From the NCBI RefSeq assembly GCF_041886205.1, contig NZ_CP169029.1: DNA of 64,000 bases; one strand, written 5' to 3'. This document shows, piece after piece, positions 9,547-44,700 of the stretch (position 1 is its first letter; every line of letters starts with the position of its first letter). The position numbers and the translations under genes are program-made. The stretch is from Escherichia coli (lineage in GTDB: Bacteria; Pseudomonadota; Gammaproteobacteria; Enterobacterales; Enterobacteriaceae). The notes beneath the pieces were generated by a model. The model made no database searches and was not told the origin of the DNA. It saw only the letters and a program-made list of their open reading frames with translations.

Positions 9547-11592
9547 ATGACAACAATGAATCCTTTCCTTGTGCAAAGCACACTGCCGTATCTGGCTCCC
9601 CATTTTGATCAAATTGCCAATCATCACTATCGCCCGGCATTCGATGAGGGAATGCAGCAAAAGCGGGCAGAAATTGCTGCCATCGCGCTTAACCCGCAAA
9701 TGCCTGATTTCAACAATACTATTCTGGCACTGGAACAAAGCGGAGAATTACTTACCCGCGTTACCAGCGTCTTTTTTGCGATGACTGCGGCGCATACCAA
9801 TGATGAATTACAGCGTCTTGACGAGCAGTTTTCCGCTGAACTGGCGGAACTGGCTAATGATATCTATCTGAACGGTGAATTATTCGCGCGGGTAGATGCT
9901 GTCTGGCAGCGCCGTGAATCCCTGGGGCTTGATAGTGAATCCATCCGCCTGGTGGAGGTGATTCATCAACGTTTTGTCCTTGCCGGAGCCAAACTTGCGC
10001 AAGCTGATAAAGCAAAATTAAAAGTACTGAATACAGAAGCTGCGACCCTGACCAGCCAGTTTAACCAGCGATTACTGGCAGCAAATAAATCCGGCGGTCT
10101 GGTTGTGAACGATATCGCGCAGCTGGCAGGAATGAGTGAGCAAGAGATTGCGCTGGCGGCAGAGGCGGCTCGCGAGAAAGGTCTGGATAACAAATGGCTG
10201 ATTCCGCTGCTGAATACCACCCAACAACCGGCGCTTGCCGAAATGCGCGATCGTGCGACGCGTGAAAAACTGTTTATTGCGGGCTGGACGCGAGCGGAAA
10301 AAAATGATGCCAATGATACCCGCGCTATCATTCAACGTCTGGTGGAGATCCGTGCACAACAGGCAACACTACTTGGTTTTCCTCATTATGCCGCATGGAA
10401 AATCGCCGATCAGATGGCAAAAACACCCGAAGCAGCACTCAACTTTATGCGGGAAATTGTTCCAGCGGCGCGTCAACGTGCGAGCGATGAATTAGCCTCC
10501 ATACAGGCGGTTATCGATAAGCAGCAGGGCGGGTTTAGCGCGCAGCCGTGGGACTGGGCATTTTATGCCGAACAGGTCCGGCGGGAGAAATTTGATCTTG
10601 ATGAGGCGCAGCTCAAGCCATATTTTGAATTAAACACGGTGTTGAATGAAGGTGTATTCTGGACCGCGAATCAGCTCTTCGGTATTAAGTTTGTCGAACG
10701 TTTTGATATTCCTGTCTACCATCCTGACGTTCGAGTGTGGGAAATTTTTGATCATAATGGCGTGGGACTGGCGTTATTTTACGGTGATTTCTTCGCCCGT
10801 GATTCAAAAAGCGGCGGTGCATGGATGGGCAATTTTGTTGAGCAATCAACACTTAATGAAACGCGTCCGGTAATTTATAACGTCTGCAATTATCAGAAAC
10901 CCGCTGCCGGTGAGCCTGCGTTGTTACTCTGGGATGATGTCATAACCTTATTCCATGAATTTGGTCATACGCTGCACGGCCTCTTTGCCCGCCAGCGTTA
11001 TGCCACGCTTTCCGGCACCAACACGCCGCGTGATTTTGTCGAATTTCCGTCGCAAATCAACGAACACTGGGCAACGCATCCGCAGGTATTCGCTCGCTAC
11101 GCCCGGCATTATCAGAGCGGGGCAGCAATGCCTGACGAACTGCAACAGAAAATGCGTAATGCCAGCCTGTTCAACAAAGGGTATGAGATGAGCGAACTGC
11201 TTAGCGCCGCACTTCTCGATATGCGCTGGCATTGCCTGGAAGAAAACGAAGCAATGCAGGATGTCGATGATTTTGAATTGCGGGCGCTGGTGGCGGAAAA
11301 TATGGATCTTCCTGCTATACCGCCACGCTATCGCAGCAGTTATTTCGCCCATATTTTTGGTGGCGGATATGCCGCAGGTTATTACGCTTATCTGTGGACA
11401 CAAATGTTGGCCGATGATGGTTATCAGTGGTTTGTTGAGCAGGGCGGATTAACGCGTGAAAATGGGCTGCGTTTTCGCGAGGCGATCCTTTCCAGAGGTA
11501 ACAGCGAAGATCTGGAACGCCTGTATCGACAATGGCGCGGTAAGGCTCCTCAGATTATGCCGATGCTGCAACATCGTGGCTTGAACATATAA
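9547..11592 (+). CDS. dcp: Dipeptidyl carboxypeptidase II (M3 metallopeptidase, 681 aa)
   Basis: HEFGH zinc-binding motif present; AGGAGA RBS before the ATG at 9547; the longer ORF-track start at 9481 is rejected. Confidence 0.95.
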   Translation: MTTMNPFLVQSTLPYLAPHFDQIANHHYRPAFDEGMQQKRAEIAAIALNPQMPDFNNTILALEQSGELLTRVTSVFFAMTAAHTNDELQRLDEQFSAELAELANDIYLNGELFARVDAVWQRRESLGLDSESIRLVEVIHQRFVLAGAKLAQADKAKLKVLNTEAATLTSQFNQRLLAANKSGGLVVNDIAQLAGMSEQEIALAAEAAREKGLDNKWLIPLLNTTQQPALAEMRDRATREKLFIAGWTRAEKNDANDTRAIIQRLVEIRAQQATLLGFPHYAAWKIADQMAKTPEAALNFMREIVPAARQRASDELASIQAVIDKQQGGFSAQPWDWAFYAEQVRREKFDLDEAQLKPYFELNTVLNEGVFWTANQLFGIKFVERFDIPVYHPDVRVWEIFDHNGVGLALFYGDFFARDSKSGGAWMGNFVEQSTLNETRPVIYNVCNYQKPAAGEPALLLWDDVITLFHEFGHTLHGLFARQRYATLSGTNTPRDFVEFPSQINEHWATHPQVFARYARHYQSGAAMPDELQQKMRNASLFNKGYEMSELLSAALLDMRWHCLEENEAMQDVDDFELRALVAENMDLPAIPPRYRSSYFAHIFGGGYAAGYYAYLWTQMLADDGYQWFVEQGGLTRENGLRFREAILSRGNSEDLERLYRQWRGKAPQIMPMLQHRGLNI

Positions 11593-11636
11593 ACACCACC
11601 AATGGCTGTCCTGGAGATATCGCCAGGCCAGCCTGG

Positions 11637-12155
11637 TTATAGCAGTAATTGCAGCAGCTGGGCGAGGGCAAACCTCACCGCTAAAGCTAATACCGTTTCG
11701 CAGTCGCCAGCAAAATGCATAACCGCAGTATAGGTCTGGCCTTTAATATGCCACGCGAACCAGACGGTACCCGCTGGCGTACCATCTTCACCGCCCTCCG
11801 GTCCGCCGTAGCCGGTAATGGCAATACTGACATCAGCATCCGCACGCTCTATGGCACCGGTTGCCATTTCTGCTGCCACTTTCTCACTCACCGCAGAATA
11901 TCGTTCAAGAGATTGCTGGCTTACGCTGAGGATTTTCATCTTTGCCTGATCGGTGAAAGTAACAAAGCCTGCACCGTAAAATTTGGGTGTATCTTCAGCT
12001 GCACACAGGGCGCTAGCCAACTTACCGCCGGTGCATGATTCGGCGGTAGTTAAGCGTAATTGATCCGCGATTAGTCTTTGACTCAACGCGGATGTCAGGT
12101 TTTCAATAGTGTCGGTATCTGCAAGTTGTACAATTTTATCGCTATTAATGTTCAC
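11637..12155 (-). CDS. ydeJ: CinA-like competence/damage-inducible domain protein (172 aa)
   Basis: ORF with CinA C-terminal domain character; conserved position next to dcp. Confidence 0.85.
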   Translation of the reverse strand: MNINSDKIVQLADTDTIENLTSALSQRLIADQLRLTTAESCTGGKLASALCAAEDTPKFYGAGFVTFTDQAKMKILSVSQQSLERYSAVSEKVAAEMATGAIERADADVSIAITGYGGPEGGEDGTPAGTVWFAWHIKGQTYTAVMHFAGDCETVLALAVRFALAQLLQLLL

Positions 12156-12430
12156 TGTTTTTTGTCCACGCTTTTATATGTAAAGGTGATTTGCTTTTTC
12201 TGTATGCTCGTCCAATATAATAATTTTCAAACATATAAATCCGATTATTCTGAAAATATATTTAAGACTATTTGATCTTCTTAACTTTAGTGAGTTAAAT
12301 TCTCTGAATATTTGACAGCTAGTTGCCTGATTTTAAATGCCTTATAACAATTGGCAGTATTCTTATTTGGCAATTATAAAAATAGCAACCAGACTTAATA
12401 AGTCAAACCAAACGCAATTAAGGAGTCAGT

Positions 12431-12823
12431 ATGAAATTTCAGGCCATTGTATTAGCAAGTTTTCTTGTCATGCCTTATGCGTTGGCAGATGACCAGGGCG
12501 GTTTAAAACAGGATGCAGCGCCACCGCCGCCTCATGCAATAGAAGATGGCTATCGCGGAACCGATGATGCAAAAAAAATGACCGTTGATTTCGCAAATAC
12601 CATGCACGATGGCGCTTCGGTTTCACTACGCGGTAATTTGATTTCTCACAAAGGAGAGGACCGTTACGTTTTTCGCGATAAGAGCGGTGAAATTAATGTC
12701 GTTATTCCTGCGGCCGTCTTTGATGGACGAGAAGTTCAGCCGGACCAGATGATCAACATTAGCGGCAGTCTGGATAAGAAAAGCGCGCCGGCCGTCGTTC
12801 GGGTCACTCATTTGCAGAAATAA
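12431..12823 (+). CDS. ydeI: YgiW/BOF-family periplasmic stress protein (130 aa)
   Basis: Signal peptide [19 protein letters not shown] then OB-fold family sequence; good RBS (AAGGAG). Confidence 0.85.
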
Positions 12824-16720: not shown

Positions 16721-16939
16721 CTACATAGCGTGTTGATTATAATAGGGCACGCCGAGCGCATCCGACTTATCACTGCCAGTACCCATGTGATTTAAATCAA
16801 ACGGTGGTTGTTCCTGCGATGGGGGAACAACCACGACATTGGCACAAGAAGTAACAACTGGCTGCGTGGTTTGTTCCGCAACGCCCTGCGCGGAAAAGAG
16901 AATAAGCGCAGCTGCTATTGCGGATAAAAGTGGTTTCAT
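16721..16939 (-). CDS. marB: MarB periplasmic protein (72 aa)
   Basis: Signal peptide MKPLLSAIAAALILFSAQGVA; last gene of marRAB. Confidence 0.9.
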   Translation of the reverse strand: MKPLLSAIAAALILFSAQGVAEQTTQPVVTSCANVVVVPPSQEQPPFDLNHMGTGSDKSDALGVPYYNQHAM

Positions 16940-16970
16940 GATTGCCTCAGTGACGTTGTCACGTTATCAA

Positions 16971-17354
16971 CTAGCTGTTGTAATGATTTAATGGATGTAA
17001 AAAGCGCGATTCGCCCTGCATATTGGTCATCCGGTATTTATGCGGCGGAACATCAAAGTAATTTTTGAAGGTTCGGGTCAGAGTTTGTTGCGACTCGAAG
17101 CCATATCGTTCTGCCAGATAGAGTATCGGCTCGTTACTTTCCTTCAGCTTTTGCGCGATTTCCGTCATCTTACGGCTGCGGATGTATTGGCCTAATGAAT
17201 GACCGGTTTCTTTTTTAAACATCCGTTGCAGGTGCCATTTGGAGTAACCCGAACGCTCTGACACTTTCTCCAGTGACAGTGGCGATTCCAGGTTGTCCTC
17301 GATCCAGTCCAAAATGCTATGAATGGTAATAGCGTCAGTATTGCGTCTGGACAT
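16971..17354 (-). CDS. marA: MarA AraC/XylS-family activator (127 aa)
   Basis: [51 protein letters not shown]... reads as MarA; ORF-track upstream extension rejected. Confidence 0.95.
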
Positions 17355-21965: not shown

Positions 21966-22847
21966 TCATTGATAACCCTGTTTTGCCGAGTCAGGCACAT
22001 CCAGCAGTTGAATAAATGCCTCAAGCGGACGCGTTTTCGCACCACGACGCCAGACCAGCCAGGTTGTTAACCAACGCCATTGCTCAGCTAACGGCCACGC
22101 TTCAACCTGGTGATGCCCCGGCATACTTTCCAGCATAGAGCGTGGAATAAGCGCAATGCCTGCTCCTGCGACCACACAGGCCAACATTCCGTGATAAGAC
22201 TCCATCTCATGGATAGTTCCCGGAGCGGCACCGTCAGCATGAAACCAGCTCTCGAAGTGGCGACGATACGAACAATTGGCGCGGAAGGCATAAATGTTAC
22301 TGCCGTTAACCTGACTGGCGCGGATTACTGGCGCATGACCTTGTGGCGTGACGATCATCAGCTCCTCGCGGTATACCGGTATCCCGTCAATGGCAGTATG
22401 GTTAATGGGCCCATCAATAAATGCCGCATTCAGTTTTCCCTCCAGCACCCCTTCCAGCATAGTGCCGGAAGGGCCGGTGGAAAGTGAAAACTGAATTTTG
22501 GGATAACGACGGTTGAATTCCGCCAGCGTGGCCGGAATGCGCACTGCTGCGGTGCTTTCCAGCGAACCAAGAGAAAATAAACCTTGCGGCTCATCGCCAG
22601 CGACAACGCTCCGCGCTTCATCCACTAACGCGAGAATTTGTTGGCTATAGCGTAAAAAGTTATGCCCGGCAGGAGAGAGACGTAAACGCTGATTCTCGCG
22701 AATAAACAGATCAACCCCCAGTTCTGTTTCCAGCTGGCGCAGACGGGTAGTGAGATTCGACGGCACGCGATGCACTTTTGCTGCAGCCTGGGTTATGCTG
22801 CCAGCTTCGGCAACCGCGTTGAACATCTCCAGTTGGGTCAGATCCAT
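21966..22847 (-). CDS. yneJ: LysR-family transcriptional regulator (293 aa)
   Basis: N-terminal [43 protein letters not shown]; divergent from sad. Confidence 0.9.
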
Positions 22848-22947
22848 AGCATTCTCGATTCGTGAATAAGTGGCTTAATATTATTCATTTTAAAGCAAGA
22901 GTAAATCTGCGTATCTTCATACCATGACTCATAAAGGAGATACCCCG

Positions 22948-24336
22948 ATGACCATTACTCCGGCAACTCATGCAATTTCGATAAATCCTGCCACGGGTGA
23001 ACAACTTTCTGTGCTGCCGTGGACTGGCGCTGACGATATCGAAAACGCACTTCAGCTGGCGGCAGCAGGCTTTCGCGACTGGCGCGAGACAAATATAGAT
23101 TATCGTGCTGAAAAACTGCGTGATATCGGTAAGGCTCTGCGCGCTCGTAGCGAAGAAATGGCGCAAATGATCACCCGCGAAATGGGCAAACCAATCAACC
23201 AGGCGCGCGCTGAAGTGGCGAAATCGGCGAATTTGTGTGACTGGTATGCAGAACATGGTCCGGCAATGCTGAAGGCGGAACCTACGCTGGTGGAAAATCA
23301 GCAGGCGGTTATTGAGTATCGACCGTTGGGGACGATTCTGGCGATTATGCCGTGGAATTTTCCGTTATGGCAGGTGATGCGTGGCGCTGTTCCCATCATT
23401 CTTGCAGGTAACGGCTACTTACTTAAACATGCGCCGAATGTGATGGGCTGTGCACAGCTCATTGCCCAGGTGTTTAAAGATGCGGGTATCCCACAAGGCG
23501 TATATGGCTGGCTGAATGCCGACAACGACGGTGTCAGTCAGATGATTAAAGACTCGCGCATTGCTGCTGTCACGGTGACCGGAAGTGTTCGTGCGGGAGC
23601 GGCTATTGGCGCACAGGCTGGAGCGGCACTGAAAAAATGCGTACTGGAACTGGGCGGTTCGGATCCGTTTATTGTGCTTAACGATGCCGATCTGGAACTG
23701 GCGGTGAAAGCGGCGGTAGCCGGACGTTATCAGAATACCGGACAGGTATGTGCAGCGGCAAAACGCTTTATTATCGAAGAGGGAATTGCTTCGGCATTTA
23801 CCGAACGTTTTGTGGCAGCTGCGGCAGCCTTGAAAATGGGCGATCCCCGTGACGAAGAGAACGCTCTCGGACCAATGGCTCGTTTTGATTTACGTGATGA
23901 GCTGCATCATCAGGTGGAGAAAACCCTGGCGCAGGGTGCGCGTTTGTTACTGGGCGGGGAAAAGATGGCTGGGGCAGGTAACTACTATCCGCCAACGGTT
24001 CTGGCGAATGTTACCCCAGAAATGACCGCGTTTCGGGAAGAAATGTTTGGCCCCGTTGCGGCAATCACCATTGCGAAAGATGCAGAACATGCACTGGAAC
24101 TGGCTAATGATAGTGAGTTCGGCCTTTCAGCGACCATTTTTACCACTGACGAAACACAGGCCAGACAGATGGCGGCACGTCTGGAATGCGGTGGGGTGTT
24201 TATCAATGGTTATTGTGCCAGCGACGCGCGAGTGGCCTTTGGTGGCGTGAAAAAGAGTGGCTTTGGTCGTGAGCTTTCCCATTTCGGCTTACACGAATTC
24301 TGTAATATCCAGACGGTGTGGAAAGACCGGATCTGA
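22948..24336 (+). CDS. sad: NAD-dependent succinate-semialdehyde dehydrogenase (462 aa)
   Basis: Aldehyde dehydrogenase family (catalytic Cys in GQVCAAAKR, Glu in ELGG); start at [10 protein letters not shown]. Confidence 0.9.
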
Positions 24337-25685: not shown

Positions 25686-25853
25686 GAATTGCGGAAAACG
25701 ACAAAATAGCATTCCCAAGGTACCTTTATTTGCCGCCGCTGTCAGCGAACATGCTATCCTTTATGAGAATTTACTTATTACGTTGAGATAATTGCCACCC
25801 GCAATTGTATGGACAGATAATTAATACATGTACACCCCATTTCAACTTTCCGT

Positions 25854-27242
25854 TTGTTCCAGGAAGGTCATCTGCTACGTAATAGCATCGCTATTTTTGC
25901 GCTAACCACGCTGTTCTATTTTATTGGTGCAGAGTTACGGCTGGTTCACGAACTTTCTCTTTTCTGGCCGCTGAATGGCGTAATGGCGGGGGTGTTTGCC
26001 CGCTATGTCTGGCTTAATCGACTGCATTACTATGCGATCAGTTATGTGGCGATGCTGGTTTATGATGCCATAACCACCGAATGGGGACTGGTTTCACTGG
26101 TTATCAATTTCTCCAATATGATGTTTATTGTTACCGTCGCCTTACTGGTCGTGCGGGATAAGCGTCTGGGGAAAAATAAGTATGAGCCAGTAAGTGCCTT
26201 ACGGCTATTTAATTACTGTCTCATTGCCGCATTATTATGCGCTATTGTCGGGGCGATTGGTTCGGTCAGTATTGATAGTCTGGATTTCTGGCCTTTGCTT
26301 GCGGACTGGTTCAGTGAGCAATTCTCAACGGGCGTGTTGATCGTGCCTTGTATGCTGACGTTGGCTATTCCTGGAGTGCTGCCGCGCTTTAAAGCAGAAC
26401 AGATGATGCCCGCCATCGCGCTTATTGTGTCGGTTATTGCCTCGGTAGTCATTGGCGGAGCGGGGAGTCTGGCGTTTCCGCTGCCTGCATTAATCTGGTG
26501 TGCAGTGCGCTATACGCCGCAGGTAACATGTCTGTTGACCTTTGTCACCGGTGCGGTGGAAATCGTACTGATAGCAAATTCGGTGATTGATGTCTCGGTC
26601 GGTTCGCCGTTCTCCATTCCGGAAATGTTCTCCGCACGTCTCGGTATTGCCACGATGGCGATATGCCCAATTATGGTTTCTTTTAGCGTGGCAGCGATCA
26701 ATTCGCTAATGAAGCAAGTTGCGCTGCGAGCCGACTTTGATTTTCTGACTCAGGTTTACTCACGGTCCGGTCTTTATGAGGCGCTGAAAAGTCCATCGCT
26801 GAAACAGACACAACATCTGACTGTCATGCTGCTTGATATCGACTATTTCAAAAGTATTAACGATAACTATGGACATGAATGTGGCGATAAAGTGTTAAGC
26901 GTGTTTGCAAGGCATATTCAGAAGATTGTCGGTGATAAGGGGCTGGTGGCACGAATGGGCGGCGAAGAATTTGCTGTTGCAGTGCCGTCGGTGAATCCTG
27001 TCGATGGTCTGCTAATGGCGGAAAAAATCCGTAAAGGCGTTGAACTGCAACCATTCACCTGGCAACAAAAAACGCTTTATCTCACGGTAAGTATTGGCGT
27101 CGGTAGTGGTTGCGCATCGTACCGAACGCTGACCGATGACTTTAATAAATTGATGGTCGAAGCCGATACGTGTCTGTATCGCTCGAAGAAAGATGGGCGC
27201 AACCGTACCAGCACTATGCGTTACGGTGAGGAAGTTGTCTGA
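25854..27242 (+). CDS. dgcF: Membrane-anchored diguanylate cyclase (MASE-like + GGDEF); start uncertain
   Basis: C-terminal GGDEF with RMGGEEF; the ORF-track start at 25854 is a TTG and the true start is probably an internal ATG. Confidence 0.8.
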   Translation: MFQEGHLLRNSIAIFALTTLFYFIGAELRLVHELSLFWPLNGVMAGVFARYVWLNRLHYYAISYVAMLVYDAITTEWGLVSLVINFSNMMFIVTVALLVVRDKRLGKNKYEPVSALRLFNYCLIAALLCAIVGAIGSVSIDSLDFWPLLADWFSEQFSTGVLIVPCMLTLAIPGVLPRFKAEQMMPAIALIVSVIASVVIGGAGSLAFPLPALIWCAVRYTPQVTCLLTFVTGAVEIVLIANSVIDVSVGSPFSIPEMFSARLGIATMAICPIMVSFSVAAINSLMKQVALRADFDFLTQVYSRSGLYEALKSPSLKQTQHLTVMLLDIDYFKSINDNYGHECGDKVLSVFARHIQKIVGDKGLVARMGGEEFAVAVPSVNPVDGLLMAEKIRKGVELQPFTWQQKTLYLTVSIGVGSGCASYRTLTDDFNKLMVEADTCLYRSKKDGRNRTSTMRYGEEVV

Positions 27243-30803: not shown

Positions 30804-32606
30804 TTATTTACTCCCGTCAGCGCGTTACCCCAATTGTAGATAAAACTGTTGACATCCTCCACGCCCTGAATGACGAGGATCCTGCTACGTTCAGGCTGTC
30901 GCCTGAATCATTTCGGTGGGTTCCTGCTTCAACGGGCGGCCTGACTGCACCATCCCTCCACAGGCAAGAACGGCGTGCCCCGCCGCTAAAATGTTACGAG
31001 CGCCATTTACATCGGCGTTCGCTGTATATCCACATACCTGGCATCTGAATTTACTTTGTGACAGGCGGTTCTCTTTCGCTGTATGACCACAGTACGCGCA
31101 ACGCTGGCTTGTATACGCTGGCGGAACAGCAAGCACCTGACCGCCACGCCAGAGCTGCTTGTACTCAAGCTGGCGGCGCATTTCATACCAGCCCTGATCC
31201 AGTATCGAACGGTTTAAACCTGATTTTGCCCGGACATTGCGCCCCGGCTGGCTGACCGTACCCGCTGCTGACTTTGACATGTTGCTGACCTTCAAATCCT
31301 CAATGACTATCATTGCGTGGTTTTTGCTGACGGTCGTTGTGACTTTGTGAAGGTAGTCCCTGCGGATATTTGCGATACGGGAATGCAGTCGCTGTATTTT
31401 GCGTTTCTGCTTCTGCCAGTTGTTGCTGAATTTGACCTTGCGGCTTAACTGTCGCTGAAGTCTCGCCAGCTTCTTCTGGTTTTTCTGAAAACTGTTTACA
31501 GGCTCAAAGACTGTACCATCTGACAGCGTGGCGAGTTTAGCCACGCCAGCATCCAGCCCGATCATTGATGCTGAAGGGTGAACCGGAGTTGATACTTCAC
31601 TTTCTGTCTGAATACTGATGTGCCACTTACCGCAGGACTGGCTGACCGTGACATTTTTCACAACACCCGTGACCTGACGGCTATTCCGGTAGCGCATCCA
31701 GCCCAGTTTCGGCAGAAAAATACGGCTGTTTTCCTGATCGAGCTTAACGCCCTGCGGGTAGCGGAATGCATCATTCTGTCCCCGCTTTTTGAATCGGGGA
31801 AAAGCAGCCCGCTTCTGGAAGAAGTTTTTGTAAGCCCGCTCAAGGTCTTTCAGTGACTGTTGCAATGGCTGTGACGGGGCATCTTTAAGCCATTGCGTTT
31901 CAGTGGCATTTTTCCACTCAACCAGCCAGGAAGCCATTTTCCCGTAAGGGATGTATTTATTACCGGCCTCATGATTCTCATTCTGACGTGCCAGAGCACG
32001 ATTGAAAACGAAACGACATGCGCCTGCGAAGCGCCTCATTTCACGCTCCTGTTGACCACCGGGTCTTAACTGGAATTTAAATGCCTGTAGTCGTTTCACA
32101 GGTCAAATTATATTTTGGTCTGTGAAAAAAGAAACCGATATCCGGCGTGGAAGGCATTGTGTTTTCCTGAAGCATGTTCACATGGTCTTTGTCACCAAAT
32201 ACCGACGCCAGATTTTTGACCATGACGCGACAGAAAAACTACGCACTTACTTTTCAAATGTATGTGCTGATTTTGAAGCTGAACTGGTTGAAATGGATGG
32301 CGAACCAGATCACGTCCATTTGTTAATTAACTATCCTCCCAAACTGGCGATATCCAGTCTGATAAACAGCCTCAAAAGCGTATCGGGTAGGTTACTGCGA
32401 CGAGATCGACCAGATATTGCAGTCAGGTATTACTACAAAGGCGTTTTGTGGAGTCCTGGCTATTTTGCCAGTAGCTGCGGAGGTGCGCCAATATCCGTCA
32501 TCCGCCAATACATTGAACAACAGCAAACACCTGGTCAGGTGGAAAACCGCGCCTTATATCCCCGCCCTGAAGGACGGGGTTTTACGGCGCACCGGATAAA
32601 TTCGCC
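30804..32606. mobile_element. IS200/IS605-family insertion sequence with divergent tnpB and tnpA between tam and lsrG; ends approximate
   Basis: Y1 HuH transposase gene and TnpB gene back to back (starts 22 bp apart), occupying the whole 1.8-kb interval between tam and lsrG; imperfect hairpins at both ends. Confidence 0.8.
30891..32099 (-). CDS. tnpB: TnpB (IS605 OrfB), RuvC-like RNA-guided nuclease, 402 aa, apparently intact
   Basis: RuvC-I (IGLDAGV), RuvC-II ([13 protein letters not shown]), zinc finger (CAYCGH...[18 protein letters not shown]) all present, no internal stops. Confidence 0.9.
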
Positions 32607-32688
32607 TCACGGCATCAACCCATTGAACAGACGTTTTTTACGCGGCCCGGTCATTAAAGATTCCAGTTTCGCGACACAGGTTTTGTAG
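32122..32688 (+). CDS. tnpA: TnpA, IS200-type Y1 (HuH) transposase; C-terminal extent uncertain (ORF runs to 188 aa and overlaps the lsrG 3' end)
   Basis: HuH motif (HVHLLINY) and tyrosine-containing C-terminal region (YIEQQ); typical family members are about 140-155 aa. Confidence 0.8.
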
Positions 32689-32894
32689 TGGGGCGTGGTT
32701 TTATGGAACGCCACTGCGTCTTCATCTTTATAGGCTTCGTAGATATAAAAGCGCGAATTCACTTCCGGGTCCTGTAAGACATCGAAGCGCAAATTGCCTT
32801 CTTCCTGTACAGAGCCCAGGTGGTTCTGGCGAAAAACTTCGATAAACTCGTCAACCTTGTCTTCATGAACGTTAATTTCAACCAGTGTGACGTG
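32607..32894 (-). CDS. lsrG: (4S)-4-hydroxy-5-phosphonooxypentane-2,3-dione isomerase (96 aa)
   Basis: ABM-domain ORF starting [10 protein letters not shown]; last gene of the lsr operon. Confidence 0.9.
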
Positions 32895-32919
32895 CATGTT
32901 TCTTCTCCTTAATCCGCAG

Positions 32920-33795
32920 TTACTGTTTTTCACTCAGATAGAGTTCATATGCCCGATCAGCCGTTTCGTTATGGTGTACCACCGCCTGTACGGCTTTCAT
33001 CATCGCCACCGGATGGTCAGACTGGAAAATATTACGCCCCATATCCACACCAGAAGCGCCCTGATCGATAGCCTGCCAGCACATTTCCAGCGCCTCGCGC
33101 TCCGGTAATTTTTTACCGCCAGCAATAACAATGGGTACCGGACATCCGGCAACAATCCGTTCAAAACCTTTATCGACATAATAGGTTTTGATAATTTGCG
33201 CCCCCATTTCAGCGGCGATTCGAGTCGCGAGCGAGAAATAACGCTGATCGCGCACCATATCTTTGCCCACGCCTGTCACGGCCATGGTCGGCATTCCCAC
33301 TTTCATTCCGGCATCAACCAGCTGAATAATATTTTTGATCGACTGATGTTCATATTCGCTGCCGATATAAACCTGCGCCGCCACCGCGCAACTGTTCAGG
33401 CGCACGGCGTCATCCATCGATAACGCCACGGCTTCATTACTTAATTCCGCCAGAATAGAGTTCGCACCTGACGCCCGCAGTACCACCGGCCTATTGGTCG
33501 CAGGGGGAACTACGCTGCGCAAAATGCCGCGCGTACACATTAATACATCGGCATGTTCAAACAGCGGGGCGATATTTATATCAATGCGTTCAAGTCCGGT
33601 AGTCGGTCCCTGAAAATAACCATGGTCAAAAGCCAGCATCACGGTTTTACCCGTTTTCGGATTAAATATCCGCGATAAGCGTGACTGCATTCCCCAATCC
33701 AGCGCACCGCAACCTTTCAGGGTAAAAGGGATATTTTTTTGCGGTTGATCGGTACGAAAATCTTTACCATCTTTAATATCGTCTAAATCTGCCAT
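32920..33795 (-). CDS. lsrF: 3-hydroxy-5-phosphonooxypentane-2,4-dione thiolase, DeoC/aldolase family (291 aa)
   Basis: Class I aldolase-like sequence in conserved lsr position. Confidence 0.9.
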
Positions 33796-33821: not shown

Positions 33822-34844
33822 TCAGAAATCGTATTTGCCGATATTCTCTTTGTTGAATATCACGCGCTCCGGTAACAGTACGATGCCATTACCATCCGCT
33901 TCGTAGTCATAGCCCTGAACGCTGTTTGGCGAGACTTCAACCTGACCTACGCCCTTGATATCCAGCTTGTCGCCCGTTTTCATTGATCCTTTTTTCAATA
34001 ATGCATCCGCGACATACACTGAAATTTTGCCTTGCTGAACCACATCCCACAGGCCAAATTCTTTCACCGTGCCGCGCTCTACATACGGGCGCATCACATT
34101 TGGCGTACTGAATCCGACAATCGCAACTTTGTCATTTTTCAGGTTTTCTGCGGCTTGTGCGGCAGCGGGCAGGGCGTTGGCATCAGGGGCGATAATGGCG
34201 TCGAGATCGCTATACGCTTTTAATATTCCTTCTGCGGTTTGTAACGATTTAGTGGCATCGTTATAGCCAAACTGCGTAGTGACAATTTCCCAGCCAGGAT
34301 GCTCTTTGGCGATTTTCGCTTTCGCTTCTTTCACCCACTGGTTTTGGTCCGTAACGGTGGGGCTTGAGTAGAAAAACGCGACTTTGGCTTTGTCTTTATT
34401 CACCTGACGCGCCGCCATATCCACCAACATACCTCCCAACTGGGCGGGCGTTCCCTGATTAATGTAGTAAGAGCGGCACTCCGGTTTAGTATCAGAGTCC
34501 CAGGTCAGCACTCTCACACCACGTTGCATGGCGCGTTTCAGTGCCGGACACAAGCCATCAGGCGAAACCGCAGAAACGATAATGGCGTTATAACCCTGAT
34601 TGACGAAGTTATTAATCAACTGTACCTGACCAGAAACACTGGGTTCTGTCGGCCCGTCGTAGGTCACATCAACGCCCAGCTCTTTACCCGCTTGTTGTGC
34701 GCCGTTGCCACCACTGGTAAAAAATCCCACGCCAACCAGTTTGGGAATAAATGCAATACGCTCTGCGGCCTGCACATTCATAGAGATTGCGGCAATGCCA
34801 AGAGCGCTAAGTAAGGCGATTTTCTTAAAGCGATGAAGTGTCAT
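33822..34844 (-). CDS. lsrB: AI-2 periplasmic binding protein (340 aa)
   Basis: Signal peptide plus sugar-binding periplasmic protein fold. Confidence 0.9.
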
Positions 34845-34855
34845 GAAGATATCCT

Positions 34856-35848
34856 TTATGGCAATGGGTTATTGGCCCGACGCGCCAGCCACTCTTTAAT
34901 TTGCTGGCGATGCAGGCTAACGGAACGACCTACGACAACGACGATAAGTAGCGCACCGGAAAGGGCGCTGGACACCTGATTTGGCACTCCTGCCATTTGC
35001 AAACCTTGTTGCAAATATCCCACTAATAAAACCGCAATGGCGGTGCCGATAATGGAACCGGAACCACCATAAATATTGGCACCGCCAAGCACCACGGCGG
35101 TGATGGCGGGCATCAGAAACGACGCACCGAGATCGGAACGTGCTGAACCAAAATACGATACCAGCAGCACAGCGGCGACCGCAGACGCCAGCCCCGTCAT
35201 GGCATAGAGCGCACATAAGGTGCGGTTAACTGGAATCGCGCTATAAAGCGCCACGCGCGGGCTTTGCCCAATCAAAAACACATTACGTCCGGCATGGGTT
35301 TTATGCAGCCAGAGCCAGAAAACGAGGAGACATATCAGGAAGATAATCAGCGGAACGGGGAGCCCCAGCACATCCAGGTTAGCGAAATCTGTAAACGCCA
35401 TCGGGAATCCACCAATATCTTCGTACCCCGTCGCTCCGGCCATCCCGGAAAGCAGCAGGGCACTTCCGGCAAACAGATACAGCGTGCCAAGCGTAATCAC
35501 CAGCGGGTTAACTTTGGTATAGATAATTAATCCGGCGTTGATCAGCCCGCACAATACGCCGAGCAGTAAGGTCAGGAGTATCGCCAGCGGCATCGGCACA
35601 CCACTTTGAAACAGTACGCCCAATGCAATGGCGCAGAGGCCGATGGTCGAACCAAACGAAATATCGATCCCGCCACTGACAATCACCATCGTCAGCGGTA
35701 GGGCGACAATGCCAATGCAGATAAAGTCACTGGTGCTGAACAGCAACATATTGAGATCTAACATCCGCGGGTTAATTGCACCAAATGCGACAATCTCAAT
35801 AACGAGCAGTGCGGCAAGAGCCAGTTCCCAACCGTAGCGAATACGCAT
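34856..35848 (-). CDS. lsrD: AI-2 ABC transporter permease (330 aa)
   Basis: ABC-2 ribose-type permease ORF. Confidence 0.9.
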
Positions 35849-36876
35849 TATGCGGCCTCCCGTTTTTTACCTGACGAAGCGGGTTTAACGGATGGCGGTG
35901 GCGTCATAAAGCGGGCATATTTTTGCCGCCGCAGATTACGTTCCAGCGCACAACGCAGGCGTCCATCAAACACCAGCACCGCTAGCAGCACGAGGCCCGC
36001 GATAAAATCGTTCCACCATGCCGGAATGCGCAACAGCACCAGTACGCTATCGATCTGCGTCAGGAACCATGCGCCGAGTACCGCACCGATGATCGCACCG
36101 GAACCGCCGAGCAAACTAATGCCGCCCAGCACGCAGGCTGCAATTGCTTTCATCTCCAGCCCGGTACCGGTCTGGTTGGGGATAAAACCAATCTGCGAAG
36201 CAAACACAATCCCCGCCAGTGCCGCCATGCAGCCGTTCAACGAAAATGCCACAATGCGAATGGCTTCCGTACGAACGCCCAGTTGACGAGCTCCCTGTAA
36301 ATTATCGCCCGTGGCATAAAAACTGCGTCCAAACGCCGTCTTTGCCAGCAGCCAGGCCATAAATGCCACCAGAATTATCGTTAACTAACCAATTGCTGAA
36401 ACGCCAAGCAGCAGCGGGGCGGAGAGCTGTTTCAGTTCGGCGGGTAACCCCTCAATCCATTTACCGCCAGTCCACAGCAACATGATGCCTCTGTACAACC
36501 CTAACGAGCCAAGGGTGGCAACAATGGCAGGGATCTTTAGCCACGCGACCAGGACACCGTTGAAAAATCCCGCGAGCAAACCAAGCAGTAAAGTCGCGAC
36601 ACAGGCAACAGGTAGTGAATATCCTGCGTTCAGTAACATCCCCAACAGCACCGCGCACATTCCGGTAATCGAACCCACTGAAACATCAATATTGCGCGTA
36701 AGCATTACCAGCGTCGCGCCCATTGCCAGCAGGATCAGGATTTGCGCGCTGCTATAAACCATGGTCAGCGTTTGCACACTTAAATACTGGCGGTCGAGAA
36801 AACCGGGTAATACAAACAGCAGCACCACCGCCAGCAGTGCCGTGATTTCACGGTTGTTCTGAATAAACTTCAGCAT
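35848..36876 (-). pseudogene. lsrC: lsrC AI-2 ABC permease interrupted by an in-frame TAG stop (minus-strand codon at 36385-36387)
   Basis: Single reading frame carries the N-terminal 163 codons, then TAG, then continues in the same frame (...[17 protein letters not shown]...); the ORF track splits it into 36385..36876 and 35848..36369. Confidence 0.85.
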
Positions 36877-38395
36877 GACGCCTCCTGACGCTGACTATCG
36901 CCGAAGGCAACGCGCATAATAGTCTCGACATTAATATCGCGCCCGGTCAGTGCAGAGTGGGTAATTTCGCCCTGATGCATCACATACACACGATCTGCCA
37001 TCAGTTCGATCTCTTCCAGATCAGAGGAGATAAGCAGCACTGCCACATTCTGTGCGGCGATGCTGCGCAACAGCTGGTAGATATCATTACGGGCTGAGAC
37101 ATCCACGCCGCGCGTCGGCTCATCGACAATCAATGCTTGCGGCGAAGCTTCCAGGCATTTGGCAATGAGGATTTTTTGCTGGTTGCCACCGGATAATGTC
37201 CGTGCAGCTTGTTCCGGTTGGTTAAATTTAATATTCAGCGCCCGACGATATCGTTCCAGGGTGGCATTATCTTTCGCGGTTTTCGCCCAGAATCCACGAA
37301 GGTTATGAGTAAGGGCGCAGACGTTCCACGCCAGTGAAGCATCGAGATTCAGTCCGGATGACTGGCGATCTTCCGGCAGATAAACCAGACCGCGCAGTAA
37401 ACGTTCTCCGGTGGATAATCTATTGATCTCTTTACCATTCAGCATAATGCTTCCGCCACGCAAACTACGCAGACCATAGAGCGTCTCGGCCAGTTCTGTG
37501 CGTCCGGCTCCCACCAGCCCAGCCAGGCCCAGAATTTCTCCGGCATTGAGCGTCAGGCTGACATTCCTGAAACCTTCGCCAGTCAGATTTTCCAGTGTCA
37601 GCACCGACGTTCCGGCGGCATGTTGTGGGCGGTTACCAGGTAACTCCAGCCATAATTTTTGGCTGGCAGAGAGCGATTTTTCCCGTACCACTGGCGTGAT
37701 GGCCTGAATAATGTCGTCGGTAGACAGTTCGCTGGTTTTGCCGCTTAAGGCGATGGTTCCGTCGCGCATCACGCTAATTCGATCGGCAATCTGGCGAATT
37801 TCCGGCAGCTTATGCGAGATAAAAACAATACCCACGCCAGTAGCAAGCAGCTCTTGCAAGCGACTAAACAAGCGTTCGGTTTCCGCAGGGGTAAGCGAGG
37901 CGGTAGGTTCAGAATCCGCGAGTCGCGCATCAGCCCGCGGAGGATTTCCACCATTTGGCGATCGGCGACATCCAGCGATCCTGCCAGACTATGCAGATCA
38001 AACTGGCAGCCCAGCGCCGCCAGCAAGTTCTTCATTTTCTGCATGGAGAGCTGTTTTTTTGCCAGCCCAAACAGGATGTTTTCTTTTATCGACAGGCTTG
38101 GAAAAAGCAGCGGTTCCTGGGGAACGAGATAAATACCCAGCTGATGAGCATGAACTGGCGTTAATCTGGCGTAGTTGTTGCCCCCAATCTTCAGCGTACC
38201 GCTATCAGCAGGGGTAATACCGGCAATAATCTTCATTAACGTCGATTTACCGGCACCATTGCCGCCGAGCAGGGCGTGGACCTCCCCCTGATGCAACGTA
38301 AAATCGATGCCTTTCAGGACATTGACCCCTGAATACTGTTTATAAACCGAGCGGGCGCAAAGTAGCGGTAACGCGCGGGTATCACTCGTTTGCAT
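36870..38395 (-). pseudogene. lsrA: lsrA AI-2 ABC transporter ATPase disrupted by a frameshift near 37905-37915
   Basis: N-terminal ORF (37769..38395) has Walker [10 protein letters not shown] and runs ...RDSRIL then out of frame; the C-terminal ORF (36870..37871) continues the ABC ATPase in another frame; Walker B hhhhDE not encoded in frame. Confidence 0.85.
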
Positions 38396-38643
38396 ATTTC
38401 CCCTGTTCAGTTTTGCAGGTGAGTTTTGAACAAATGTATTTCTGCTTTTAATTTGTTCATAACCTTAGGTGGACATTGCACATATTTCCGACGAATAGAT
38501 CACAATTTATGCTATTTTGATTCTCCCGGTTGCGTTTGTTCATACTCGTAGAGTCAAACTGTGGTTGCCATCACAGATATAAATGCGCAAGAACTGAACA
38601 ATTGCATTAAAGATTTAAATATGTTCAAAGTGAAGAATGAATT
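38396..38643. promoter_or_regulatory. Divergent lsrR / lsrACDBFG control region with a perfect inverted repeat TGAACAAAT-N15-ATTTGTTCA (38427-38459)
   Basis: Inverted repeat read directly; position between divergent lsrA and lsrR starts. Confidence 0.6.
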
Positions 38644-39597
38644 ATGACAATCAACGATTCGGTAATTTCAGAACAGGGAATGTGTGAAGAAGAACAGGTC
38701 GCGCGGATCGCGTGGTTTTACTACCACGACGGGCTGACCCAGAGTGAGATCAGCGATCGTCTCGGCCTGACCCGTTTGAAAGTGTCGCGATTACTGGAGA
38801 AAGGGCATCAATCCGGCATTATTCGCGTACAGATTAATTCTCGCTTTGAAGGCTGTCTGGAATATGAAACACAATTACGTCGTCAGTTTTCGCTGCAACA
38901 TGTCCGGGTGATCCCAGGGCTTGCGGATGCTGATGTCGGCGGGCGACTAGGGATAGGCGCGGCGCATATGTTGATGAGTTTACTTCAACCACAACAGATG
39001 CTGGCGATTGGTTTTGGCGAGGCAACCATGAATACGCTGCAACGCTTAAGTGGTTTTATTTCGTCACAGCAAATTCGCCTGGTCACGCTCTCCGGTGGAG
39101 TCGGTTCTTATATGACGGGTATCGGGCAGCTTAACGCGGCGTGCAGTGTGAATATTATTCCGGCTCCGTTGCGGGCATCCTCCGCTGACATTGCCCGTAC
39201 GCTAAAAAATGAAAATTGCGTCAAAGATGTTCTGCTAGCCGCGCAAGCAGCGGATGTGGCGATTGTCGGCATTGGTGCTGTGAGTCAACAGGACGATGCG
39301 ACAATCATTCGCTCCGGTTATATCAGCCAGGGCGAACAGTTAATGATTGGCCGAAAAGGTGCAATTGGCGACATTTTAGGCTACTTTTTTGATGCAAAAG
39401 GTGACGTTGTCACGGATATTAAAATACATAACGAACTGATTGGCTTACCTTTAAGCGCGCTGAAGACCATACCCGTCCGGGTTGGCGTGGCAGGGGGAGA
39501 AAATAAAGCCGAAGCAATTGTCGCTGCAATGAAAGGCGGTTATATCAACGCACTGGTCACCGATCAGGACACAGCAGCGGCGATTTTACGTAGTTAA
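38644..39597 (+). CDS. lsrR: LsrR repressor of the lsr operon (SorC family, 317 aa)
   Basis: N-terminal HTH plus sugar-phosphate binding domain. Confidence 0.9.
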
Positions 39598-39675: not shown

Positions 39676-41268
39676 ATGGCTCGACTCTTTACCCCTTCAG
39701 AATCAAAGTATTACCTGATGGCGCTGGATGCAGGTACCGGAAGTATTCGGGCTGTGATATTCGACCTGGAAGGCAATCAAATAGCAGTGGGACAGGCGGA
39801 GTGGCGGCACCTGGCAGTACCGGACGTTCCTGGTTCTATGGAATTTGATCTCAACAAAAACTGGCAACTGGCGTGTGAGTGTATGCGCCAGGCGCTGCAC
39901 AACGCCGGCATAGCCCCGGAGTATATCGCTGCCGTTTCGGCATGTTCGATGCGTGAAGGCATTGTTTTATATAACAATGAAGGAACACCGATCTGGGCCT
40001 GCGCCAATGTGGATGCCAGAGCGGCGCGCGAAGTTAGCGAACTTAAAGAACTGCACAACAATACCTTTGAAAACGAAGTTTATCGCGCGACCGGACAAAC
40101 ACTGGCTTTAAGTGCCATCCCCAGATTACTTTGGCTGGCGCACCATCGTTCCGATATTTACCGTCAGGCATCAACCATCACCATGATCAGCGACTGGCTG
40201 GCCTATATGCTCAGCGGCGAACTTGCGGTGGATCCCTCTAACGCTGGCACCACGGGACTTCTTGATCTAACCATCCGTGACTGGAAACCTGCATTGCTGG
40301 ATATGGCTGGCCTGCGTGCCGATATTCTTTCTCCTGTCAAAGAAACCGGCACATTGCTGGGCGTGGTAAGTTCACAAGCGGCGGAACTCTGCGGTCTGAA
40401 GGTGGGCACTCCGGTGGTCGTTGGAGGAGGCGACGTGCAGCTTGGTTGCCTGGGGTTAGGCATTGTGCGTCCGGCACAAACCGCGGTTCTTGGCGGCACA
40501 TTCTGGCAGCAAGTTGTAAATTTAGCCGCGCCGGTGACAGACCCAGAAATGAACGTGCGCGTTAATCCTCATGTTATTCCTGGCATGGTACAAGCTGAAT
40601 CTATAAGCTTTTTTACCGGACTCACCATGCGCTGGTTCCGCGATGCTTTCTGTGCCGAAGAAAAACTGATTGCCGAACGTTTAGGCATCGACACCTATAC
40701 GCTGCTGGAAGAGATGGCCAGTCGGGTGCCGCCTGGGTCGTGGGGCGTAATGCCGATCTTCTCCGACAGAATGCGCTTTAAAACCTGGTATCACGCTGCG
40801 CCTTCCTTTATTAATTTGTCCATTGACCTGGATAAATGTAACAAAGCGACATTGTTCCGTGCGCTGGAAGAAAATGCGGCGATTGTATCAGCGTGTAATT
40901 TGCAGCAAATTGCTGATTTCTCGAATATTCATCCCACCTCGCTGGTTTTTGCTGGCGGAGGTTCAAAAGGGAAATTATGGAGTCAAATTCTCGCTGATGT
41001 CTCGGGATTACCCGTCAATATTCCGGTAGTCAAAGAAGCCACCGCATTAGGATGTGCCATTGCAGCTGGCGTCGGTGCCGGAATTTTTTCATCAATGGCA
41101 GAAACCGGAGAACGCCTGGTTCGCTGGGAACGGACGCACACACCAGACCCGGAAAAGCATGAACTTTATCAGGATTCACGCGATAAGTGGCAGGCAGTTT
41201 ATCAGGATCAGCTGGGGCTGGTTGATCATGGACTGACGACGTCGTTATGGAAAGCGCCTGGGTTATAG
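39676..41268 (+). CDS. lsrK: Autoinducer-2 kinase (FGGY carbohydrate kinase family, 530 aa)
   Basis: FGGY kinase N-terminal motif [16 protein letters not shown]. Confidence 0.9.
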
Positions 41269-41798: not shown

Positions 41799-44700
41799 AT
41801 GAATAGAATCTATCGCGTGATATGGAATTGCACCCTACAGGTATTTCAGGTCTGCTCGGAATTAACTCGCAGGGTAGGTAAAAAATCGACGGTTAATTTG
41901 CGTAAATCCTCTGGACTGACAACGAAATTCAGTAGATTGACGCTGGGTGTTTTGCTGGCACTAAGCGGTTCAGCGTCTGGTGCGAGTCTGGAAGTTGATA
42001 ATGATCAGATTACCAATATTGATACTGATGTTGCTTATGATGCCTACCTGGTTGGCTGGTATGGCACTGGAGTGCTTAATATTTTGGCTGGCGGTAATGC
42101 CTCCTTAACCACGATTACTACCAGCGTCATTGGTGGTAATGAGAACTCGAAGGGCACCGTTAATGTTTTGGGTGGCACCTGGCGATTGTATGATAGCGGA
42201 AATAATGCAAGGCCTTTAAATGTGGGTCAATCCGGAACGGGGACGCTGAATATTAAACAGAAAGGTCACGTTGATGGAGGATATTTAAGGCTAGGTTCCT
42301 CGACAGGAGGCGTCGGGACGGTCAATGTTGAGGGAGAGGACTCTGTTCTGACGACCGAATTATTCGAAATAGGGAGCTATGGCACAGGCTCATTAAATAT
42401 TACAGATAAGGGTTACGTCACGAGTTCAATAGTCGCCATTTTAGGCTATCAGGCGGGCGGTAATGGCCAGGTTGTCGTGGAAAAGGGCGGCGAGTGGCTA
42501 ATAAAAAATAACGATTCCTCAATTGAATTTCAAATTGGTAATCAAGGAACGGGGGAAGCGACTATTCGCGGGGGTGGGCTGATTACGGCTGAAAACACGA
42601 TTATCGGTGGCAATGCCACCGGTATCGGAACCCTGAATGTGCAGGATCAAGACTCTGTCATCACGGTACGCAGACTCTATAATGGATATTTCGGCAATGG
42701 CACAGTCAATATTTCCAATAATGGACTGATTAATAACAAAGAATATTCATTGGTGGGCGTTCAGGACGGTTCCCACGGTGTCATCAACGTGACCGATAAA
42801 GGGCATTGGAATTTCCTCGGAACAGGCGAAGCTTTCCGCTATATCTATATCGGTGATGCTGGCGACGGTGAACTTAATGTCTCGAGTGAAGGCAAAGTAG
42901 ATTCGGGAATTATCACTGCGGGGATGAAAGAAACAGGCACAGGCAACATTACTGTTAAGGATAAGAACTCCGTTATCACTAATCTCGGAACTAATCTTGG
43001 TTATGACGGCCACGGCGAAATGAATATCAGTAATGAGGGGCTTGTTGTCAGCAACGGAGGAAGTTCACTCGGTTATGGAGAAACCGGCGTCGGGAATGTC
43101 AGCATCACCACGGGGGGGATGTGGGAGGTCAATAAGAATGTCTATACCACCATTGGTGTTGCGGGTGTCGGAAACCTCAATATTAGCGATGGCGGTAAGT
43201 TTGTATCGCAAAATATTACTTTTTTGGGCGATAAAGCAAGCGGTATCGGCACACTGAACCTGATGGATGCGACATCATCGTTCGATACTGTGGGTATCAA
43301 TGTCGGTAATTTTGGTAGCGGTATCGTAAATGTCAGTAATGGTGCCACCCTTAATTCAACGGGCTATGGATTTATCGGAGGAAATGCCTCCGGTAAGGGG
43401 ATAGTTAATATTTCAACGGATAGTCTCTGGAATTTAAAGACATCATCTACTAACGCCCAATTGCTACAGGTCGGTGTATTAGGCACGGGTAAACTGAATA
43501 TTACCACCGGAGGTATAGTTAAAGCGCGTGATACACAGATAGCTCTCAATGACAAAAGTAAGGGCGACGTGAGGGTGGATGGGCAGAACTCTCTGCTTGA
43601 AACATTCAATATGAACGTAGGGACGACTGGCACGGGTACGTTAACCCTGACGAATAACGGCACGCTGAATGTTGAGGGTGGCGAAGTTTACTTAGGTGTT
43701 TTTGAACCTGCTGTAGGAACGCTAAACATTGGTGCTGCTCACGGTGAGGCGGCGGCAGATGCCGGGTTTATCACCAACGCGACGAAAGTAGAGTTTGGTT
43801 CTGGCGAAGGTGTTTTTGTCTTTAATCATACCAATAACAGTGATACCGGCTACCAGGTCGATATGCTGATTACGGGTGACGATAAAGACGGAAAAGTGAT
43901 ACATGATGCAGGCCATACGGTGTTCAATGCAGGGAATACTTATAGCGGTAAAACGCTGGTCAATGACGGCCTCCTGACCATTGCGTCACATACGGCAGAT
44001 GGGGTAACGGGCATGGGTTCGAGTGAAGTAACCATTGCAAGCCCCGGTACGCTCGACATTCTCGCATCAACGAACAGTGCAGGAGATTACACGCTGACCA
44101 ATGCGCTCAAAGGCGATGGCTTGATGCGAGTTCAGCTGTCATCCTCCGACAAGATGTTTGGCTTTACCCATGCAACAGGGGCTGAATTCGCCGGTGTTGC
44201 CCAACTGAAAGACAGTACCTTCACTCTGGAACGCGACAACACCGCTGCGCTTACTCACGCGATGTTGCAGTCTGACATTGAAAATACCACATCGGTAAAC
44301 GTGGGAGAGCAATCCATTGGTGGACTGGCCATGAATGGCGGTACGCTCATTTTCGATACGGATATTCCTGCTGCGACGCTTGCAGAGGGATATATCAGCG
44401 TCGATACGCTGGTTGTCGGCGCGGGTGACTACACCTGGAAAGGCCGTAACTATCAGGTAAACGGGACGGGCGACGTGCTTATCGACGTGCCTAAACCGTG
44501 GAATGATCCCATGGCGAATAACCCTCTGACGACGCTCAATTTGCTGGAACACGATGATAGCCATGTCGGCGTTCAACTGGTGAAGGCGCAAACGGTTATT
44601 GGGTCGGGTGGTTCATTAACGTTACGTGATTTACAGGGCAACGAGGTGGAAGCGGACAAAACGTTACATATTGCGCAAAACGGAACGGTGGTCGCCGAGG

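Follow-up and report, generated by a model that had tools for sequence, protein, structure and literature searches.

The window analysed here, a stretch of 64,000 nucleotides (64 kb) from Escherichia coli, is ordinary E. coli chromosome comprising the end of the Qin prophage and the dcp, mar, lsr, hipBA, tcu and ydeQRS regions. It is about 99.96-99.97% identical to strain wlxctx60 (bear faeces, Japan) and about 99.97% identical to the commensal isolate 6EVA. A Shigella origin, suspected from the presence of multiple lesions and of the IS element, was ruled out by 100% identity to E. coli N1 over 14.3 kb and by the identity of about 99.97% to wlxctx60 and 6EVA.

Within the lsr locus the gene order is kept: lsrK and lsrR are divergent from lsrA-C-D-B-F-G, which is followed by tam, and the arrangement is collinear with three complete genomes. 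On the plus strand, the genes of the repressor LsrR (38644-39597) and the AI-2 kinase LsrK (39676-41268) are open. On the minus strand, lsrD, encoding the second permease (34856-35848), lsrB, encoding the periplasmic AI-2 binding protein (33822-34844), and lsrF and lsrG, encoding the phospho-AI-2 processing enzymes (32607-33795), are open as well. These six genes are identical to the intact annotated genes of wlxctx60, with the exception of a derived G144D substitution in lsrD (GGT>GAT at codon 144, position 35418), a change that is co-inherited with the lsrC stop described below. The divergent regulatory region between lsrR and lsrA (38396-38643, not assigned to a strand) carries a derived T>G change at 38526 that was found only in the subclade with the lsrC TAG codon. 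The two remaining genes of the operon, lsrC and lsrA, are both disrupted and should both be marked as pseudogenes in the annotation of the window.

An element of the IS200/IS605 family forms a 1.75-kb insert between lsrG and tam (30891-32688). It encodes an intact TnpB of 402 aa, assigned to the RNA-guided endonuclease family at 384.5 bits, and its TnpA is truncated. It was rejected as an lsr lesion, being located downstream of the operon and common to relatives with intact lsrC; short-read assemblies break at this element. On the other side of the locus, lsrK adjoins a gene for an ECSE_1600-family autotransporter of 1806 aa (41799-47219, plus strand), which is intact in the window, frameshifted or split in the close relatives L001, L011 and L015-L017, and deleted in 6EVA, and thus represents a variable locus. 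hipBA is contiguous in the window (about 47440-49030); in wlxctx60 a TnAs1-type transposon interrupts hipA (L006, 2201-9435), and in 6EVA the gene is truncated beside a filamentous-phage-like insertion (L007, 16206-16766). Further along, a fimbrial cluster at about 60600-62350 of the window is broken up by an IS3 element (ORF 60780-61646, minus strand), which leaves FimA-like and FimD/PapC C-terminal remnants upstream of ydeS and ydeR, and CP52E is annotated likewise. At 25824-25826 (plus strand), the window has ATA where wlxctx60 has the annotated ATG start of a gene for a diguanylate cyclase with a sensor domain, and the first in-frame start after it is a TTG at 25854; this may be a lineage-specific loss of the start codon, or the annotated start may be wrong.

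Translation of the minus strand from 36876 to 35848 gave a 342-codon lsrC frame, encoding the permease of the AI-2 ABC transporter, that contains exactly one internal stop, at codon 164. This TAG, at 36387-36385, is in frame with both halves of the gene, in agreement with the first-pass annotation, which had reported an in-frame amber stop at 36385-36387 of lsrC. Comparison with 12 complete E. coli genomes whose lsrC is annotated as intact revealed a single mismatch in 1029 bases (99.9% identity), which bears out the further proposal of a point nonsense mutation and not a frameshift. The ancestral codon had been supposed to be TGG (Trp), and alignment recovered precisely this codon in the intact lsrC of 19SZHZ713Rt, wlxctx60 and 6EVA, position 36386 on the coding strand being A in the window versus G in these genomes. 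Lsr permease inactivation at this codon, lsrC W164*, is best described as a genuine lineage-specific nonsense mutation that arose by a single G>A (G:C>A:T) transition, TGG to TAG.

The identity of the gene was assessed with the LsrC equivalog profile NCBIfam NF011961, which has a curated cut-off of 388 bits. LsrC with the tryptophan restored scored 666.7 bits over profile positions 1-343 of 344, well beyond this cut-off, and the gene can therefore be taken as lsrC by descent. Neither of its parts reached the threshold: the 163-aa N-terminal fragment scored 303.6 bits (profile positions 1-163) and the C-terminal piece 338.5 bits (profile positions 171-343). The open reading frames reflect the same division, with a 163-aa ORF at 36385-36876 and a lsrC remnant in the same frame downstream at 35848-36369. 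The N-terminal fragment itself occupies 36388-36876, and its product is an exact match to EKI53599.1 of E. coli N1; the predicted truncation after about 163 residues holds; the C-terminal remnant, codons 165-342 at 35848-36384, would be untranslated or at best re-initiated. Among the 19-residue segments of LsrC, that at residues 155-173 is the most hydrophobic (Kyte-Doolittle mean 2.42), and codon 164 lies mid-way in it. The stop is thus predicted to interrupt a transmembrane helix, with the loss of at least four further hydrophobic segments, and a complete LsrC permease is, as judged from the reading frame, not encoded in the window.

Immediately upstream of lsrC, the gene of the transporter ATPase, lsrA (36870-38395, minus strand), was found to be a pseudogene of 1526 bp versus 1536 bp in the intact operon, with ORFs of 208 aa and 333 aa. 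The difference is a 10-bp deletion with its junction at about 37909-37912, where the reference reads ATTCTGATCCTCGATGAACC and the window ATTCTGAACC; alignment of the whole locus to an intact operon gave CGGATTCTGATCCTCGATGAACC for the reference and CGGATTCTGAACC for the window across the same region. A TGA direct repeat borders the deleted stretch. Within RILILDEPT of the intact protein this stretch encodes ILDE, the Walker B motif of the first nucleotide-binding domain, and its loss also causes a frameshift. Concordantly, the 208-aa N-terminal ORF covers only positions 1-164 of the LsrA profile and scored 288.9 bits compared to a cut-off of 586, and the NCBI annotation pipeline PGAP labels the same lsrA allele as frameshifted in wlxctx60 and 6EVA. 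An LsrA ATPase with two intact nucleotide-binding domains is thus not encoded in the window.

An ABC transporter of the importer type cannot work without its ATPase. As lsrA lacks this Walker B motif and is frameshifted, the importer is predicted to be non-functional whatever the state of lsrC, and the Lsr AI-2 importer would already have been disabled by the lsrA deletion before the lsrC stop appeared. This changes the weight given to the lsrC lesion in the first-pass annotation: the stop codon is real, but that annotation took it for the decisive lesion and did not notice the 10-bp frameshift deletion in lsrA, which is older and had put the importer out of action beforehand.

The TAG allele was found in identical form in the GenBank draft genome of E. 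coli N1 (scaffold JH965337.1), to which the window is 100% identical across 14,348 bases, and in the Logan assemblies of three independent read sets, SRR19521149, SRR28800585 and SRR14867109. Among the loci compared, TAG was seen only in L002-L004, L014 and the window, and TGG was present in wlxctx60, 6EVA, 19SZHZ713Rt, L008-L013 and L015-L017. All TAG carriers checked share lsrD G144D (35418) and the T>G change at 38526, both of which are absent from the other carriers of the lsrA deletion. An exact 60-mer centred on the TAG was found in none of 5426 complete RefSeq E. coli genomes, a count for which a carrier with a second SNP inside the 60-mer would be scored 98.3% identical and missed. An exact-protein look-up of the 163-aa LsrC product yielded about 15-17 contigs. 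The metagenome contig L005 (an ENA scaffold of 568 bases) was dropped as a TAG carrier, as it ends at codon 164 and reads ggttg (TG...) at this point; its truncated product coincides with the 163-aa fragment by chance, which is a caveat for allele counts obtained by exact protein match. Altogether, the TAG allele appears to belong to a small subclade of natural E. coli, with E. coli N1 among its members. The N1 product EKI53599.1, the truncated LsrC, is named monosaccharide-transporting ATPase in GenBank, which is wrong, and EKI53597.1, the N-terminal LsrA fragment of the same strain, is named hypothetical protein ECN1_1498, which is misleading for a piece of a pseudogene. A literature search on E. 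coli N1 or its assembly, or on the lsrC allele, found no relevant paper.

The lsrA deletion has a wider distribution. Of 5426 complete genomes, two carry it (wlxctx60 and 6EVA), each with an intact lsrC (WP_040062989.1), and it is present in all four TAG carriers checked. In a large collection of assemblies, about 165 contigs (198 blocks) are indexed for the 208-aa LsrA fragment, approximately ten times the count of the LsrC fragment (about 165 versus 15-17 contigs). Ten places with the lsrA deletion were listed: in eight of them the remaining lsr operon is intact, one has the split lsrC of the window allele, and one, L013 (ERR1157030), has an independently split lsrB (11552-12575) with intact lsrC. 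In 6EVA (L007), lsrB is frameshifted (22033-23054) by a 1-bp deletion that could be an assembly error, and lsrK is truncated (16767-17201) by a deletion with prophage insertion. The distribution is thus, as far as the compared genomes reveal, strictly nested, the lsrA deletion being older and more widespread and lsrC W164* later and confined to one small subclade. The presence of the lsrA deletion in all TAG carriers together with the many deletion-bearing loci that retain an intact lsrC implies that lsrA was hit first and lsrC second. Since the lsrA lesion is the earlier and wider one, the amber codon most probably represents secondary decay of an already inactive operon, a reading to which we assign a probability of roughly 0.88.

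A course of events compatible with this order can be proposed. The 10-bp deletion in lsrA would have deprived an ancestor of its Lsr AI-2 importer. After loss of the ATPase, the remaining transporter genes would have been free of selection, and perhaps also less expressed through transcriptional polarity. Ordinary G:C>A:T mutation may then have eroded the lsr genes, giving lsrC W164* and lsrD G144D in this lineage, and the damage to lsrB and lsrK in sister lineages may have come about in the same way. The branch of the subclade bears three changes in the lsr region, one nonsense, one missense and one regulatory, and none was synonymous. No local excess of substitutions, which would be a sign of relaxed selection or hypermutation, was found in lsr, where 3 of the 17 differences to wlxctx60 fall in approximately 4.8 kb of 48 kb; the differences elsewhere are similar in density (7 in 16 kb and 10 in 32 kb). 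Relaxed constraint is therefore suggested, from very few events, by the kinds of change and by the independent lesions in sister lineages, and not by the rate.

The stop in lsrC could also have been favoured by selection instead of drift, either shedding an orphan membrane complex that is costly or harmful once LsrA is lost or completing a non-consuming "cheater" phenotype. The independent later lesions within the small lsrA-deletion clade, in lsrC here, in lsrB twice and in lsrK once, are in line with this, and Brito et al. argue that lsr pseudogenization was too fast for neutrality and tie it to social evolution (PMC3595036). However, most deletion carriers have no further lesion (8 of the 10 places listed, and wlxctx60), SNPs are no denser in lsr than in the flanks, and one of the two lsrB lesions is the 1-bp deletion of 6EVA that could be an assembly error. 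We therefore consider selection for the lsrC stop unlikely. It seems similarly improbable that the membrane and periplasmic Lsr parts orphaned by the loss of LsrA are harmful and that selection, rather than drift, drives the repeated and independent knock-outs of lsrC, lsrB and lsrK in this single young clade; if this were true, the clade would constitute a natural time series of selected operon dismantling.

Secondary decay is challenged even less by a read-through of the amber codon, by a suppressor tRNA or by natural readthrough, that would yield full-length LsrC and a working importer. As the stop is in frame with both halves, an inserted amino acid would indeed restore the full length of the protein, but the lsrA frameshift and the missing first-domain Walker B would leave full-length LsrC still without its ATPase. 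An amber suppressor could therefore not restore uptake, and suppression is moot for transporter function. Moreover, no tRNA gene, including suppressors, was found within the 64-kb window, and the base after the stop is U (TAGT). In E. coli, UAG followed by U favours efficient termination. lsrK at the same locus normally terminates with TAG, and the relatives of the strain are natural faecal isolates, not suppressor-carrying laboratory strains. Taken together, these observations render a working importer through readthrough very improbable. Pyrrolysine insertion or programmed UAG recoding was rejected, as close relatives encode Trp at codon 164, and E. coli is not known to have such a system.

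It is equally hard to credit that both halves of LsrC are made and act as a split functional permease. The second half would have to re-initiate at an in-frame ATG located 22 nt past the stop, from which gene callers predict a 170-aa ORF, and this ATG is preceded by GGTGG-N5, a Shine-Dalgarno-like motif. Nevertheless, the break splits a predicted transmembrane helix at its centre, the seven residues from W164 to F170 would be missing, and the lsrA frameshift leaves the importer non-functional in any case. Finally, a sequencing or assembly error in a strain that truly carries TGG has next to no likelihood: a lone base that sets the window apart from every complete RefSeq E. coli genome does have the form of an error, but the same base in the N1 draft and in the assemblies of the three independent read sets rules out an error confined to one assembly, and the TAG always occurs together with the derived SNPs at 38526 and 35418.

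Secondary decay of lsrC after loss of lsrA fits into a known pattern. Brito et al. (2013, Genome Biol Evol 5:16; PMC3595036) surveyed E. coli and Shigella, 44 genomes in all, and inferred that the lsr operon had been inactivated independently at least eight times. Of the 34 lsr pseudogenes they counted, large truncations made up 76.5%, small indels, with a 7-bp deletion among them, 17.6%, and premature stops caused by point mutation 5.9% (2 of 34) (PMC3595036). The decay described here resembles theirs in that it concerns the same operon, with genes of uptake and reception hit by small indels and premature stops, in that several lesions pile up once the operon is inactive, and in that insertion sequences flank the locus. 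Unlike their cases, in which the triggering event of inactivation was usually not identifiable (PMC3595036), the lsrA deletion followed by lsrC W164* occurs in a lineage outside their 44 genomes and the order of the hits can be resolved.

A further parallel is provided by the engineered lsrA, lsrC, lsrD and lsrB knock-outs of K-12 MG1655, in which a component of the transporter is lost and lsrK and lsrR are intact. Those knock-outs are clean single deletions in a laboratory strain, whereas the window combines two natural lesions with a missense change in lsrD. In K-12, lsr transporter knock-outs are less efficient in AI-2 removal (PMC3595036), and the phenotype expected for the lineage studied here is that of such knock-outs: AI-2 would still be made, and would be cleared from the medium inefficiently. 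The amber codon, an in-frame TAG derived from TGG by one transition, is also of the same kind as the supE/supF-suppressed amber alleles of laboratory E. coli. It differs from these in its occurrence in natural isolates, in the lsrA frameshift that bars functional rescue, and in that no suppressor was found in the window, which has no tRNA gene at all.

As a further instance of a known, repeated decay of lsr, lsrC W164* is of low biological significance. What it adds is a readable order of lesions, in which the lsrA deletion preceded hits that struck lsrC, lsrB and lsrK independently on different branches, and the lsrA-deletion clade could serve as a small case study of operon erosion after a first inactivating hit. 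For the biology of the species, it represents one more natural E. coli lineage that makes AI-2 and is predicted to be unable to import it efficiently, which fits the published view of "conserved signal production but labile signal reception".
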